Shown: positions 29,367 to 33,870 of the stretch, piece after piece
Position numbering within the stretch: the first letter of the stretch is position 1
How the letters are laid out: each line of letters starts with the position of its first letter
DNA from: Alphaproteobacteria bacterium
GTDB taxonomy: Bacteria > Pseudomonadota > Alphaproteobacteria > SP197
NCBI GenBank assembly: GCA_964291265.2
Contig: OZ219747.1
Location: forward strand, 352,001-416,000
Direction of reading: 5' to 3'
Length of the DNA stretch: 64,000 nucleotides
Made by a program: the position numbers and the translations under genes
The notes under the pieces: generated by a model
Database searches by the model: none
What the model was told of the DNA's origin: nothing
Seen by the model: the letters and a program-made list of their open reading frames with translations, nothing else

Positions 29367-30305
29367 ATGATCAGGATGAATGACAGGATCGCTGCGGGCG
29401 ACATCATCGTCATCGACGGAGGGATGGGTACCGAGCTCGAGCGTCATGGCGTGCCCATGCATGCCCGAACATGGGCGGGCGCGGCGTTGATCGAGTACCC
29501 CGATGCCGTGGTCGACATCCATGCCGACTTCATCCGCGCCGGAGCGGAGGTCATCATCACCAACACGTTCGCAGCCTCACCCCACATGCTCGAGGCGATG
29601 GGCCATGGCGAGAATGCCGAGACGATCATCCGTGGTTCCGTCGATCTCGCCAGGCGGGCGCGCGACCGGGTCGGCCGGGACGTCGCCATCGCAGGATCGA
29701 TCTCGACCATGGCGCCCGGCGGAGATCTCGCGGACCCCGGCAACCGTCATTCCGATGGCGAAATCGCCGACAGTCTGGGCCGCATGGCACGAGCGCTTGC
29801 CGACGGCGGCTGCGACGTGATTGCTCTGGAGATGATGCAGGACACGGTTCGCGCGCCCCTTGCCATGCTCTGCGCCAAGGAAACGGGCCTGCCGGTCTGG
29901 CTGGGTCTGACGTGCGCACGGGCGCGAGACGGCGACGATCTGGTCGCATTCGACTTTCCCGGGAACCGTCTTGCCGACATCGTGGCGGCAACGGTGCCGC
30001 TGGGGCCGGATCTCGTGTGCGTCATGCACAGCGATGTCGACGTCACAGGCGATGTCATCGATGCCGTGAAGCAGCACTGGAACGGCCCGCTCGGCGTCTA
30101 TCCCGAAGCGGGCTATTTCGAGATGCCGCACTGGCACTTCGTCGACGTGATCGCGCCCGATGCGCTGGTCGAGCGGGCCCGGGCCTGGGCGGGTCAAGGC
30201 GTGACAGTCTTCGGAGGTTGCTGTGGTCTCGGCCCGGAGCACATTGCCGCCCTGGACGATGCCCGCGAGAGTCTCGAGGCATGCCGCTCCCGTCACCTCG
30301 ACTGA
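29367..30305 (+). CDS. homocysteine S-methyltransferase family protein
   Basis: IDGGMGTEL, AGAEVIITNTF and GGCCG (Zn) motifs. Confidence 0.9.
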   Translation: MIRMNDRIAAGDIIVIDGGMGTELERHGVPMHARTWAGAALIEYPDAVVDIHADFIRAGAEVIITNTFAASPHMLEAMGHGENAETIIRGSVDLARRARDRVGRDVAIAGSISTMAPGGDLADPGNRHSDGEIADSLGRMARALADGGCDVIALEMMQDTVRAPLAMLCAKETGLPVWLGLTCARARDGDDLVAFDFPGNRLADIVAATVPLGPDLVCVMHSDVDVTGDVIDAVKQHWNGPLGVYPEAGYFEMPHWHFVDVIAPDALVERARAWAGQGVTVFGGCCGLGPEHIAALDDARESLEACRSRHLD

Positions 30306-30484
30306 GCAGGGCTGATGCGGGATGCGGCCTGGAACACAAGGGCGCTGACGCCAGCGACGTGACCCTGTCGCACCAGGCCGGCCCGGACTGGCAGGTTTTC
30401 ATGGTCCGATGGTCCCGCATGGCGCAGCGCGGTGAGCCGTTGCGAGTGGTGATGCGGGTTCGCCGTGGCAAGTCCTGCTGCCGG

Positions 30485-31144
30485 CTACTCTCGCGCAATG
30501 CGGCAGGGTCTCCATCCCTTCGACCAGTGTTCATCGGACTGGACATGGCCCTCGCGAACGCTCTTGCAGACGTTGAGGTGGAATTCGTCGGCCGGAAACG
30601 CGCTCGCCAGCCTGATGACCACGCCTTCCCGCTCTCCACCGAGCACCGATGGCTCCCCGTGGGCGAAGTGGATGAAGTCCTGCACATCGTCCACTGACCC
30701 GAACACGCCCTCATGGAGGACCGGAACCAGCGGCAGCGCTCGATTGCGCGCATACTCCATCAGTGCCTGGAACGAGGAAAACCATCCGTTGGCGAAACGA
30801 AGTGCGAAGGCATGGAAGGTGCTGTCCTCCGGCACGGGGTCGTAGTCGATGCTGTGCACACCATAGATGTCCTCGCCATAGAGAAAGACGTCCCGCTCCA
30901 GCACCTTCCAGGCATGGTGCTTTCGCACCATGGCCAGCCACTTGTCGACCGAAGGAGCCGAAACGCTGCGTCCGTACACCTCTCCCATGTGCAGGAGCGT
31001 GTTGCTGCCATCGAGCTTTTCGGTGACGACGACCGGCGTTCCGACAAACCGTGATGGATCGGCAAGATCCTTCTTGCCACGGCCTCTTGCAGGCGACTGC
31101 GGCCAGTAGGGAGTCCTCGGATACCTGGGGATGCAGCGTGTCAT
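30485..31144 (-). CDS. ATP-dependent RNA ligase family protein
   Basis: YPRTPY, motif I TEKLDGSN, motif III LYGE, motif IIIa FHAF, motif IV EGVVIR, motif V-like CKSV. Confidence 0.85.
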   Translation of the reverse strand: MTRCIPRYPRTPYWPQSPARGRGKKDLADPSRFVGTPVVVTEKLDGSNTLLHMGEVYGRSVSAPSVDKWLAMVRKHHAWKVLERDVFLYGEDIYGVHSIDYDPVPEDSTFHAFALRFANGWFSSFQALMEYARNRALPLVPVLHEGVFGSVDDVQDFIHFAHGEPSVLGGEREGVVIRLASAFPADEFHLNVCKSVREGHVQSDEHWSKGWRPCRIARE

Positions 31145-31147
31145 GAT

Positions 31148-31633
31148 CTATGAATCGCCGACCCTTGCGGAATGCTGCGGACACAGCTGCCGCAGCGTCA
31201 CGGCCAATCGATCCAGCAGTGCGCACTGCTCATGCCAGTCGCTGTCCGTTGCGTTGAGGATCACGCCACCGGCGACCAGCGCTGTAGCAAGGAACTTTCG
31301 ATCGGACCTGTCCAGATCATTTGCCGGCAATTCCTCGAATCCCCGGTCGTCATCGCTGCTCGGAGCAATTGACACGCGACGCACACGGGACGTGTCGTAC
31401 TGACGGTTGAAGACATGCTTGAAGAACTTGTCGCCTACTCCCTCGGCGCCTCCACTGTTCAGGTGTCTTGCGTATTCCCCGATGATGAGGCGGCGATCAT
31501 CGACAGCAACGATGCCGCGTGCACAAATGTCCTCCAGGACCTTCACACACACGAGCTGACATGGCAGGTCCGCATGTGTACGTCTCCTGTTCGCCGCAAT
31601 GGCAACGTTCGTGTCGACGACGCATGCCGTCAT
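31148..31633 (-). CDS. PIN-domain protein
   Basis: VVDTNV, IIGEY, DRSDRKFLATA and ATDSDW acidic PIN motifs. Confidence 0.8.
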   Translation of the reverse strand: MTACVVDTNVAIAANRRRTHADLPCQLVCVKVLEDICARGIVAVDDRRLIIGEYARHLNSGGAEGVGDKFFKHVFNRQYDTSRVRRVSIAPSSDDDRGFEELPANDLDRSDRKFLATALVAGGVILNATDSDWHEQCALLDRLAVTLRQLCPQHSARVGDS

Positions 31634-32994
31634 GGCGCGGTCTCGACCTGCCGTTCGAGGGACGCCTTGGCGATCGCTGCAATCTCGGACATTTCGTCTC
31701 CGAAGAACCGGGGAGGCCAGTTCTCGATCTCACCCCACTCATTGAGCTTGAGGTCGTTCAGCTCGGCGGCGCCGCGGCGTGTCTGGATGAAATAGAGTCT
31801 CAGGTCGCAGGACGGCACGCTTGCCTCGGCCGCACGCCGCTGAAAGCGGCGAAGCAGATGTTCGCTGTGGCTTTCCACGATGATCTGCACGCGCCGATGC
31901 CGGGCGACTGCCAGCATCACGTCCGCAAGCTCGCTCTGGACGGATGGATGCAGGTGTATCTCCGGCTGTTCCATCATCACGATGGAGCCTTCTGGCACGT
32001 AGTAGAGGAGCACGAGAACCGGCAGCACCTGGGAAACGCCGAAGCCGACGTCCGTCAATGTCGTCTCGGGGCTGTTTCGATGCGTTCGCACACAGGCCTG
32101 GTAGAGATTTGTCCCCGATCCGATTTCCCTGATCTCGAACGCTTGGATCATGCCCAGCCTGACCAGCCAGTGGGCGATCATTTCCTGGAACTTCATGAGC
32201 CGCCTGCGCGGCCCCAGATTGCGCACTTCGCCTTGCGCGGTCGCCGCCAGGATGGCGTCGATGGTGTTTTCTCCGCTTGGCCCCACGTCAGCGGGACTGG
32301 CCCCTGACCAACGGTACTCGCGCCGTGGATGCTCCCGCAGCGGACCAAGATAGAAGATCCTGTCCATCAGGGCTTCGTATTCGGCCTCGAAGTCGCTCAG
32401 GAAACCGGTGTTCTGAAAGTACGTGAGAGCCTGATCGGGAAAGAGGTGTGTCTTGACCGGTCCCGGCAACGCCCAGCCCCGCCCCTGGTTGCGCACGAAC
32501 TTCAAGGCATGGGGGCCGTTGGACCTGAGTTCGAATTCACGGGAACTCCCGTCCTTGGGCTCGATGGAAAAACTGGTGTCGGCAAAGCCGTACTCCACGC
32601 GGCGCGCCGAAAGGCCCGAATCCTCCAGACCGACTCGAGCGCCCTCCCGCAACCTCTCCCCTGTGAAGAGCACATCCTTGCGGCGCCCGCTCGGGTCGTG
32701 GACCCTGAGAGGAGCAGGGAGACCCCAATCCAGCGTCCAGACGATGTCTGCCGACTGCTCGCCCCGATGCACGATGGCCTTGTAGGCCCCCAGGTTGACC
32801 AGCTGGTTCGGCCCGCCAAAGTCCAGGACGAGGCGCCGGTCCGTGGCATTCTTCGTCTGCTTCAGCAGCAGAAGGAACTGCAGAACACTGCTCTTGCCTG
32901 AGCTGTTCTCGCCGAAGAGACCGGTCACCTTGCCGAATGACACGTCCAGCTTGCGCCACGCCTTGAAGTTCGTGACTTCAAGATGGTTCAGCAT
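31630..32994 (-). CDS. ABC-type (AAA_15/AAA_21, DUF3696-like) ATPase
   Basis: NFKAW, Walker A GENSSGKSS, YLGPLR, DVGFGVSQVLP, Walker B MEQPEIHLHP, ESHSEH; no TM segments. Confidence 0.88.
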   Translation of the reverse strand: MLNHLEVTNFKAWRKLDVSFGKVTGLFGENSSGKSSVLQFLLLLKQTKNATDRRLVLDFGGPNQLVNLGAYKAIVHRGEQSADIVWTLDWGLPAPLRVHDPSGRRKDVLFTGERLREGARVGLEDSGLSARRVEYGFADTSFSIEPKDGSSREFELRSNGPHALKFVRNQGRGWALPGPVKTHLFPDQALTYFQNTGFLSDFEAEYEALMDRIFYLGPLREHPRREYRWSGASPADVGPSGENTIDAILAATAQGEVRNLGPRRRLMKFQEMIAHWLVRLGMIQAFEIREIGSGTNLYQACVRTHRNSPETTLTDVGFGVSQVLPVLVLLYYVPEGSIVMMEQPEIHLHPSVQSELADVMLAVARHRRVQIIVESHSEHLLRRFQRRAAEASVPSCDLRLYFIQTRRGAAELNDLKLNEWGEIENWPPRFFGDEMSEIAAIAKASLERQVETAP

Positions 32995-33368
32995 CGCTCG
33001 CTCTCCCTGCCTTCGCATCCTGTCGGAAACCGGACCCCGAGGACCGGCGCGTCAAGGACATCCGCCGCCAGTATCGGGCAAGGGAACCCGGCCGCCGGGT
33101 CGTCAAACGGCCTGACGCGCGCTGCAGGAGATCAGGCACACCGTGCAGGCCCGACTCTCGCTCCTGCCTGACAAGGATGCAAGATGCCTGCGGCCACCGG
33201 TTCGTCTCGCTCGAACGCCCAGGCCAGTGCGCACAGTGTCAGTCCGGCGCCATCGTGGTCAGGCAATCCGTCCTGCGGGACGTGACGTTCATCTGCCGCC
33301 GCGCGGCTCGATGACGGCGCAACGGGCGCCGGGTTTGCAGGAAACGGCTTCCCGGGACGCAAGGGGCC

Positions 33369-33414
33369 TTGACATCGGCGACTTCGCAAACCATACAGTA
33401 CCAGAATCGTCCTG
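33369..33414 (+). promoter_or_regulatory. putative suf promoter with candidate Rrf2 operator
   Basis: TTGACA at 33369, 17-nt spacer, weak -10 CATACA; imperfect inverted repeat CAGTAC-N7-GTCCTG at 33396-33414. Confidence 0.45.
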
Positions 33415-33429
33415 ATTGGGCAGGTCTCC

Positions 33430-33870
33430 ATGATCCGATTGTCCCGCATGACAGACTACGGTGTCGTCGTCATGACCTACATGGCGTGGCACGGGAACGA
33501 GACACGCTCCGCGCACCAGGTGGCCACGGCCACCGGTCTGCCGGAAGCCACGGCCGGCAAGCTCCTCAAGCTCTTCGCCCGCGCCGGCCTCCTGAAGAGC
33601 CGGCGTGGCGCCCGTGGCGGGTACATCCTGACCTCGAGCCCGGAGGAGATCTCCCTTGCCCGTGTCGTCGAGGCTGTCGAGGGTCCGATCGCACTCACCC
33701 TGTGCGTCGACGACCACCCCGGTCACTGCGATGTCGAATCGCTGTGCCCCATGCGCGGAGGCTGGAACCAGATCAACACCGCACTGCGCGACGCCTTCGA
33801 GGGCGTCTCCCTTGCCGCGATGACCGCACCCCTGATCCCCCTTGCGGGGCTTCGGCAGCTGGAGGCCTGA
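33430..33870 (+). CDS. SUF system Rrf2-family regulator
   Basis: MIRLSRMTDYG, SRRGARGGY, VEGPIALTLC; three Cys. Confidence 0.9.
   Translation: MIRLSRMTDYGVVVMTYMAWHGNETRSAHQVATATGLPEATAGKLLKLFARAGLLKSRRGARGGYILTSSPEEISLARVVEAVEGPIALTLCVDDHPGHCDVESLCPMRGGWNQINTALRDAFEGVSLAAMTAPLIPLAGLRQLEA

Follow-up and report, generated by a model that had tools for sequence, protein, structure and literature searches.

HEC-03 is an anti-phage system that pairs an ABC ATPase with a VapC-like PIN nuclease and was found embedded in Hma (helicase-methylase-ATPase) systems; in the accessible part of the preprint describing it, a HEC-03 homologue reduced plaquing in E. coli, both genes were needed for this effect, a VapC-like fold was reported for the PIN protein, and isopropyl thiogalactoside (IPTG) was omitted for HEC-03-expressing strains 'due to apparent toxicity' (Payne et al., bioRxiv 10.1101/2024.01.29.577857). 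This study analyzed a locus of this type in an alphaproteobacterial genome (assembly GCA_964291265.2, contig OZ219747.1, forward-strand positions 352,001 to 416,000; this whole stretch of 64,000 nucleotides is called the window), where an ATPase-PIN pair is followed by a third gene for a predicted RNA ligase. The locus is a known defence system in a widespread, uncatalogued ligase-bearing variant and does not constitute a new category. Its three genes are as follows.

31630..32994, minus strand: ABC ATPase (AAA_15/AAA_21 plus DUF3696), predicted HEC-03 ATPase component, 454 aa counted from Met9 (open reading frame, Pfam, PADLOC PDLC04148, ribosome-binding site, invariant motifs).
31148..31633, minus strand: PIN-domain nuclease (VapC/PIN_3-like), predicted HEC-03 PIN component, 161 aa (open reading frame, PADLOC PDLC04147, sub-threshold Pfam PIN match, acidic residues).
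30485..31144, minus strand: predicted minimal ATP-dependent RNA ligase consisting of the PF09414 nucleotidyltransferase domain only, 219 aa (open reading frame, Pfam, invariant motifs, structure model).

The three open reading frames run without interruption on the minus strand (31630-33018, 462 aa; 31148-31633, 161 aa; 30485-31144, 219 aa) and form an operon-like unit, with the ATPase stop and the PIN start sharing 4 nt (31630-31633) and the PIN stop lying 3 nt from the ligase start. For the ATPase, a start at 32994 (Met9 of the long frame) is preferred over 33018 because a ribosome-binding site, GGGAGAG at 33007-33001, stands 6 nt ahead of that ATG and because the PADLOC profile begins at residue 9; residues of the ATPase are numbered from Met9. 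An earlier reading of the bare DNA (the sequence-only reading) had described the three uninterrupted genes, the ATPase/PIN overlap, the 3-nt gap before the ligase and the start at 32994, and the open reading frame coordinates, the ribosome-binding site and the profile start bear out this description.

Comparison with the PADLOC profiles placed the first two genes in HEC-03. The ATPase matched PDLC04148 (HEC-03B) at E 4.5e-208 and 689.9 bits, with residues 9-460 of the long frame on profile positions 1-455 of 458, and was the sole full match to this profile in the genome of the window; the PIN protein matched PDLC04147 (HEC-03A) at E 2.4e-61, with residues 4-157 on profile positions 3-157 of 159, and matched no other PADLOC profile. 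With these end-to-end matches to an adjacent, co-oriented ABC ATPase and VapC-like PIN gene, the pair is, by its sequence, a member of HEC-03. The ligase gave zero matches to PADLOC profiles, and no NCBIfam family scored above its cut-off for the ATPase, the PIN protein or the ligase. The locus departs from HEC-03 as defined and tested in that HEC-03 comprises two genes, whereas the window and 15 of 29 relatives (sampled as detailed below) add a PF09414 ligase after the PIN gene; it is also not embedded in an Hma system, a context that was the mode of HEC-03 discovery and is not a requirement. The sequence-only reading had taken the trio for a combination without a name and had proposed a PADLOC search as a check; that search returned the ATPase and PIN, two of the three genes, as an already described system, and the ligase stands outside the HEC-03 definition. 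As a point of nomenclature, the component names are swapped between sources, with PADLOC calling the PIN protein HEC-03A and the ATPase HEC-03B and the preprint using HEC-03A for the ATPase and HEC-03B for the PIN protein.

Domain and motif evidence agrees with this placement. Pfam recognized AAA_15 (92 bits), AAA_21 (74 bits) and DUF3696 (22.5 bits) in the ATPase, and its Walker A residues (G28, N30, G33, K34 and S36), E342-Q343-P344-E345 and H376 were invariant in 48/48 sequences, consistent with a soluble ABC ATPase of the AriA/NsnB type. For the PIN protein the Pfam PIN match (PF01850) reached 18.2 bits, under the 23.6-bit cut-off; similarly weak PIN matches occurred in 31/49 and PIN_3 matches in 24/49 members of its family, an Atlas look-up returned one PIN_3 cluster (score 0.93), and no sequence relative was found among solved structures. 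The four acidic residues of a PIN active site (D-E-D-D) are present as D7, E53, D111 and D130, together with D45, D108 and D132; across 49 sequences N9, D45, E53, D111, D130 and D132 were invariant and D7 and D108 were kept in at least 90%, and the acidic residues were retained in 59-61 of 61 sequences when distant forms were included.

Two other described systems share parts of this architecture. PARIS, which is stated in abstracts to cleave tRNA, resembles the locus in joining a soluble AAA_15-type ABC ATPase (AriA) to a small nuclease, and the window ATPase matches AriA profiles (E 5.6e-29); it differs in its Toprim effector AriB and in having no ligase, and the match covers the ATPase core only. 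Membership in PARIS was rejected, as neither the PIN protein nor the ligase matches AriB. In Menshen (NsnABC), the ATPase NsnB carries AAA_15 plus DUF3696 like the window ATPase (PADLOC NsnB, E 1.9e-57), and NsnC begins with a PIN-like domain; according to the accessible text of PMC12065111, the Menshen PIN-like domains are without catalytic residues and a separate C-terminal nuclease is present. Menshen further includes a ParB-DUF262 protein, NsnA, for which the islet has no counterpart, whereas the window PIN protein keeps its acidic residues and, unlike the PIN-like domains of NsnC, looks active from its sequence. Menshen was likewise rejected, the islet having three genes only, its PIN protein matching HEC-03A alone and its ATPase scoring far higher on HEC-03B than on NsnB. 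Separately, the genome of the window holds at least three more genes for AAA_15-type ATPases that match part of the HEC-03B profile at E 1e-17 to 7e-23 (G000:C2:2009686-2010216, C2:629312-630388 and C1:34355-34819; L002-L005), and these may belong to other ABC-ATPase defence systems.

The third gene encodes a predicted ATP-dependent RNA ligase with a KxDG nucleotidyltransferase fold, as judged from its sequence and a structure model. It scored 69.4 bits against Pfam RNA_ligase PF09414 (cut-off 27), and the residues E42-K43-x-D45-G46 (x is L in the window), E91, E173-G174 and K194, which we take to be nucleotidyltransferase motifs I (the KxDG lysine), III, IV and V, were invariant in 58/58 sequences. 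The model (pLDDT 90.1, pTM 0.89) was matched by Foldseek with probability 1.00 to NgrRnl, MthRnl, Trl1-LIG, T4 Rnl2 and REL1, at TMq 0.5-0.6 and 13-18% identity, such that the best solved matches are Naegleria Rnl5, archaeal Rnl3, the fungal Trl1 ligase domain, T4 Rnl2 and trypanosome REL1. These solved proteins are 233-610 aa long (TMt 0.2-0.5), and among viral structures a 204-aa phage 'ligase' is matched best (TM 0.72-0.77). The window ligase is a bare nucleotidyltransferase domain that carries none of the accessory N- or C-terminal domains of the named families (Rnl1-Rnl6), and because these family-defining domains are missing it was assigned to no named Rnl family. Relatives are numerous, with 1095 of 1240 candidates at E <= 0.001; among the 120 listed, with the window's own protein set aside, identity was 63-83% and length ~209-297 aa (most 214-240), and the few that bear a name are called 'RNA ligase family protein'. 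High conservation across the phyla sampled, the absence of a close solved structure and the reduction to the nucleotidyltransferase domain alone make this protein of roughly 215-225 aa of interest for RNA-ligase enzymology. With respect to the sequence-only reading, its catalytic motifs were present and invariant in relatives of all three proteins, and profiles, motifs and the ligase model support its identification of a soluble ABC ATPase, a PIN protein with acidic active-site residues and a KxDG nucleotidyltransferase.

The structural comparison also bears on whether the pair might act on DNA, with the PIN protein working as a FEN-like DNase and the ligase sealing DNA or RNA-DNA nicks. PIN-like domains do include DNA flap nucleases, and among the PDB sequence matches of the ligase, which are marginal only, the profile gives weak hits to chains that bear the name 'DNA ligase' (3qwu, 8uce), with the 8uc* entries being titled thermophilic RNA ligase. 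However, Foldseek ranks RNA ligases first and true DNA ligases below them at E ~1e-4 or worse, the ligase is without an OB domain, and the PIN protein of HEC-03 is likened to VapC ribonucleases in the accessible part of Payne et al.; an action on DNA is thus considered very improbable.

Conservation of the ligase beside the ATPase-PIN pair was assessed from both sides. For the ligase-side sample, one genome per species was scanned and the best-scoring 80 of 237 encoding stretches were considered. In 47/80 ligase loci, the ATPase, PIN and ligase genes form an uninterrupted trio with identical order and strand. These trios are distributed over eight phyla according to record titles (Acidobacteriota 20, Binatota 8, Pseudomonadota 6, Thermodesulfobacteriota 4, Latescibacterota 3, Spirochaetota 3, Rhodothermota 2 and Gemmatimonadota 1); with gene content and order preserved in eight phyla, the arrangement is far beyond chance. 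Another 4/80 loci hold all three genes with a frameshift, insertion, truncation or in-frame stop in the ATPase or PIN gene (L026, L064, L075 and L076), 13/80 retain the ATPase and/or PIN gene as remnants only (one of these at a contig end), and 16/80 have the ligase alone (one with too little upstream sequence to judge). Spacing, measured on 48 trios (the 47 plus L076, which has an in-frame stop in its ATPase), was tight, with a 4-nt ATPase/PIN overlap in 34/48 and a PIN-ligase gap of -23 to +82 nt. Pairwise identities of the proteins co-vary as well, with the ATPase-ligase correlation (r 0.76, reached by 0/999 permutations) being as strong as the ATPase-PIN correlation (r 0.74), although shared descent of the hosts contributes to these values. 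No fourth gene (healing enzyme, HNH or methylase) was conserved beside the trio across lineages, and the common flanks are lineage-specific metabolic genes. At one locus (L186:2778-3605), a single stop-to-stop frame is hit by the PIN profile (7e-20) as well as by the ligase profile (5e-79), which may represent a PIN-ligase fusion or a truncated PIN gene running into the ligase.

The ATPase-side sample, unbiased as to the ligase, was drawn from genomes with a HEC-03B-like ATPase at E <= 1e-40. In the phylum of the window, 15/401 genomes had such an ATPase (the window's own included), and in 9 of the 14 other loci a PIN-sized gene was followed immediately by a PF09414 ligase (88-125 bits); the proteins of these nine are only distantly related to those of the window (ATPase 33-41%, ligase 25-29% identical), and two distant ATPase-PIN pairs that were tested were both still assigned to HEC-03 by PADLOC. 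A second phylum, that of L041, gave 15/401 genomes with the ATPase and 6/15 with the ligase, which brings the count for both phyla to 15/29 HEC-03-like loci with a PF09414 ligase right behind the PIN gene. The top scorers on the PADLOC ATPase profile, L090 (819 bits) and L185 (717 bits), are without the ligase. In the ATPase tree, which has 53 rows, those without the ligase sit nested within groups that bear it, and ligase presence needs at least 7 changes (5 of them forced by well-supported branches) compared with 12.7 in shuffles, 0/500 of which were as low. Since the tree is unrooted and 19/53 of its rows (the window and 18 trios) were drawn from the ligase-side sample, it indicates repeated gain or loss of the ligase and does not give the direction. 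Upstream of the distant trios, a weak N6/N4 DNA-methylase-like protein was observed in two loci (L094:2884-4359 and L097:10-1488), a possible Hma context, and two further loci (L096:132-1403 and L098:2911-4383) yielded a Schlafen AlbA_2/HATPase_c_4 protein and one with a CHAT protease domain.

Combined, the two samples indicate at the sequence level that the ligase is a conserved but optional third component of HEC-03-like loci, accessory and not core. Adjacency of the ligase to ATPase-PIN homologues in other genomes had been set beforehand as one test of the sequence-only reading, and the counts from both directions agree with what it had expected. The same counts refute the idea that the ligase lies beside the ATPase-PIN pair by chance and is functionally unrelated to it: half of the HEC-03-like loci do lack a ligase, and nothing else speaks for such an accident, which the shared order and tight spacing in both samples and the clustering of ligase state on the ATPase tree leave with a negligible probability.

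A more substantial question is whether the ligase serves the PIN nuclease or a broader purpose. In all 80 ligase-side loci the ligase is full length and stop-free and keeps all 10 checked residues, including the ligase-only loci, and 33/80 combine an intact ligase with an absent, fragmentary or interrupted ATPase and/or PIN gene. In one acidobacterial lineage, the site after thrS is occupied by full trios (L045, L050 and L053), by remnants (L062 and L054) or by thrS directly beside the ligase (L041 and L046), and by sequence comparison this appears as a decay series in which the ligase outlives the ATPase and PIN genes. A search for HEC-03-like ATPases (E <= 1e-30) in five ligase-only genomes found none in four, and the fifth gave a weak match with an in-frame stop. 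By analogy, this orphan pattern is like the one shown by antitoxins, by immunity genes and by orphan methylases.

Relatives of the ligase that are 35-46% identical (30-46% over L117-L160) also stand alone in viral contigs of 100-500 kb; the ligase is by itself in 65 of 68 viral loci, and the other 3, on short contigs, have the whole trio. In the five phage loci whose neighbours were inspected, no clear RNA-repair module was seen. An Hsp20 gene lies within 2 kb of the phage ligase in three of these five loci (L117, L119 and L122), and at L119 a calcineurin-like phosphoesterase abuts the ligase.

These observations can be read as a sign that the ligase travels with HEC-03 but serves RNA repair or immunity in general and mends damage by foreign ribotoxins (of phages, competitors or other defence systems), as opposed to the cuts made by its own PIN partner. 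The intact ligase-only loci, the ligase-only genomes without any HEC-03-like ATPase, and the stand-alone viral relatives, together with the structural match to a 204-aa phage ligase, all favour this explanation. It has greater difficulty with the fixed slot behind the PIN gene and the tiny gaps, which are maintained across ATPase branches only 33-41% identical, and with the ATPase-ligase co-variation; a mere hitch-hiker would not be expected to keep the same slot through such deep divergence. General repair is therefore regarded as unlikely, yet plausible enough to be kept in consideration.

The interpretation put forward here, tentatively and with slightly less than even confidence, is that the locus is a horizontally acquired islet in which a HEC-03 pair is combined with a conserved RNA ligase, the ATPase restraining the PIN nuclease and the ligase resealing its cuts. 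The ATPase would sequester or gate the PIN protein until a phage cue, a role suggested by analogy with AriA/AriB of PARIS, whose ATPase profile the window ATPase also matches. The PIN nuclease would presumably cut RNA, the ligase would reseal the 3'-OH/5'-phosphate breaks so made (both the chemistry of these ends and the action of the ligase on PIN products being presumed), and resealing would buffer leaky PIN toxicity and let the cell recover. Counted in support are the tight and ancient coupling of the trio, its intact active sites, the toxicity noted in the accessible part of Payne et al. for the ligase-less pair, and the antidote-like asymmetry by which the ligase stays intact where the ATPase or PIN gene has decayed. 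The lack of healing enzymes beside the trio is counted as well: the sequence-only reading had pointed out that no kinase or phosphatase is encoded here, and indeed none is found in the islet or conserved beside the other trios.

End chemistry is central to this mechanism. Metal-dependent PIN nucleases would be expected to leave 3'-OH/5'-phosphate ends. Ligases of the Rnl type (there called 'ATP-grasp') require 5'-phosphate ends, and metal-independent RNases leave ends that need a kinase and a phosphoesterase, according to the portion of PMC7824862 available. A literature search on the end chemistry of VapC cuts found nothing, and in the accessible text of PMC7790460 VapC expression is reported to induce the rtc operon, for which a tRNA fragment carrying a terminal 2',3'-cyclic phosphate has been proposed as ligand.

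Several points weigh against resealing of PIN cuts as the function of the ligase, and the rtc induction is one of them, as it calls for caution in assuming that PIN cuts leave ligatable ends. T4 Rnl2 cut down to its nucleotidyltransferase domain reportedly cannot complete nick sealing, and by analogy the window ligase, which has no accessory domain, may need a partner for sealing. The ligase also appears dispensable for defence, because the two-gene HEC-03 defends without it (as far as Payne et al. could be accessed) and because 14/29 ATPase-side loci have none. Intact orphan ligases in genomes without a HEC-03 ATPase imply, from these genome comparisons, that the ligase must be useful on its own and that this use does not depend on the HEC-03 PIN nuclease. 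Lastly, the choice of the best 80 of 237 stretches means that decayed ligases would be under-sampled, which tempers the antidote-like asymmetry.

The ligase could instead be part of the effector, in that the PIN nuclease cuts and the ligase joins the wrong ends, excising nucleotides from tRNA loops or circularising and scrambling RNAs beyond phage repair. Precedents exist: RloC removes the wobble base to frustrate repair (PMC7824862, in the part available), and RNA is circularised by Rnl3 ligases, which are found together with the PIN-like HARP (PMC12153264, likewise). Persistence of orphan ligases without a PIN gene, the defence already provided by the two-gene HEC-03 in the available account of Payne et al. 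and the lack of any sequence sign of a two-cut mechanism argue otherwise, making this a rather improbable scenario.

Taking the resealing of PIN cuts one step further, HEC-03 may at root be a three-gene 'cut-and-reseal' module in which the ATPase sensor frees the PIN RNase and the ligase mends host RNA, so that translation is arrested without killing; the two-gene form would then be a derived, more toxic remnant and the orphan ligases would provide immunity to PIN-type ribotoxins. This broader proposal is speculative and on balance doubtful, but if true HEC-03 would be the first anti-phage system to come with an RNA-repair enzyme of its own. For most abortive-infection systems built on nucleases, the prevailing view is that the cell is given up or that recovery depends on slow turnover. 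A defence operon with its own RNA ligase would offer a concrete, testable case of reversible RNA-targeting immunity, and a ligase that normally limits damage could explain the toxicity seen on inducing HEC-03 in its two-gene form. There is also a consequence for annotation, as PADLOC calls such loci two-gene HEC-03 and overlooks the third gene of about half of the 29 sampled loci.

The concept of cutting and resealing within one operon has probably been published before. Matelska et al. 2017 (PMC5499597), in the portion available, credit Burroughs and Aravind 2016 with an RNA ligase that neutralises toxic nucleases in operons of PIN_3 (COG1569), ATPase, 'ATP-grasp' ligase and HNH genes. Compared through this summary, that system resembles the window in uniting a PIN_3-type nuclease (the window PIN protein being weakly PIN_3), an ATPase and an Rnl-type ligase in one operon, and it differs in its HNH gene, for which there is no equivalent in the islet or conserved beside the trios. 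Because the Aravind group uses 'ATP-grasp' for ligases of the Rnl1/Rnl2 type (PMC7824862, as accessed), the system may be the same as the window trio or a sister of it. Beyond this indirect 2017 summary, literature searches found no description of a ligase-bearing HEC-03 form; it is absent from the PADLOC definition, and the word 'ligase' occurs 0 times in the main text of Payne et al. (the supplements being outside that count).

Other pairings of RNA ligases with nucleases provide looser parallels. ATP-dependent RNA ligation answers the RNA cutting of a defence system in the contest of PrrC with Pnkp/Rnl1 of phage T4, and the bacterial Pnkp1-Rnl-Hen1 system mends ribotoxin damage with the help of a stand-alone Rnl protein (PMC4411300, in the part accessed); there, nuclease and ligase belong to opposing parties or the ligase belongs to a repair complex with healing enzymes, whereas in the window nuclease and ligase share one operon without a kinase, phosphatase or methylase. 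HARP (PIN_5) and Rnl3 likewise bring together a PIN-superfamily nuclease and an ATP-dependent RNA ligase that co-occur and are sometimes adjacent, and in the accessible text of PMC12153264 the authors raise both a toxin-antitoxin reading and a repair 'safety net'. They differ from the window trio in the PIN_5 type of the nuclease, in the dimeric, circularising Rnl3 of ~380 aa, in having no ATPase, and in their housekeeping role in tRNA and sRNA processing in extremophile hosts.

The trio forms an inserted islet, the parts of which are as follows.

30306..33363, no strand: inserted islet, missing at the same site in two congeners (mmuM-to-rrf2-suf distances in G412 and G401, GC dip).
30320..30470, plus strand: left member of an imperfect direct repeat, duplicating the promoter region and first codons of rrf2 in diverged form (alignment to the right copy).
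33350..33500, plus strand: right (native) repeat copy, the actual promoter and 5' end of rrf2 (the empty sites of G412 and G401 match this copy and not the left one).

The flanks are a homocysteine S-methyltransferase gene (mmuM, 29367-30305) and an Rrf2 regulator followed by SufB, SufC and SufD from 33430, and the annotation of these neighbours confirms the homocysteine methyltransferase and suf surroundings given by the sequence-only reading. Twelve congeners were searched for the mmuM/rrf2-suf junction, and an empty site was found in G412 and G401, where mmuM and rrf2-suf are 187 and 49 bp apart compared with ~3.08 kb in the window. The islet is bracketed by the imperfect direct repeat of ~130-170 nt, whose 45-nt core (30390-30434 vs 33419-33463) is 78% identical and whose wider alignment is ~73% identical; the repeat is a copy of the rrf2 promoter region and first codons, with the right copy native and the left one diverged. 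No recombinase gene is present in the islet. GC content is 0.59-0.63 within the trio and 0.65-0.68 outside.

Two congeners, G402 and G409, carry a trio at another site, with ~65% DNA identity to that of the window and an ATPase from a different subclade, and the closest ATPase to the window's (81%) comes from a metagenome-assembled genome of Thermodesulfobacteriota. Because of this closest relative and the different subclade of the congeners' trios, sequence comparison points to lateral acquisition of the trio, at least twice within the genus.

At the locus itself, no sigma-70-like promoter was found (0.4 expected by chance), and 3 terminator-like hairpins were seen compared with 1.8 expected by chance, an uninformative excess.

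Other congeners hold different inserts at the mmuM/rrf2 junction (~0.8 kb in G411, ~2.75 kb in G404 and ~2.5 kb in G405). The G405 insert (L111; G405:C11:163000-165700) contains a HipA-like kinase gene (L111:347-1690; HipA_C, E 3.9e-43) and an upstream open reading frame of 181 aa. With different cargo in three congeners, the junction has the look of an insertion hot spot for toxin or defence genes. The G404 insert (L110) consists of unannotatable open reading frames with a faint IS1-like match, and the insert of G411 is locus L112.

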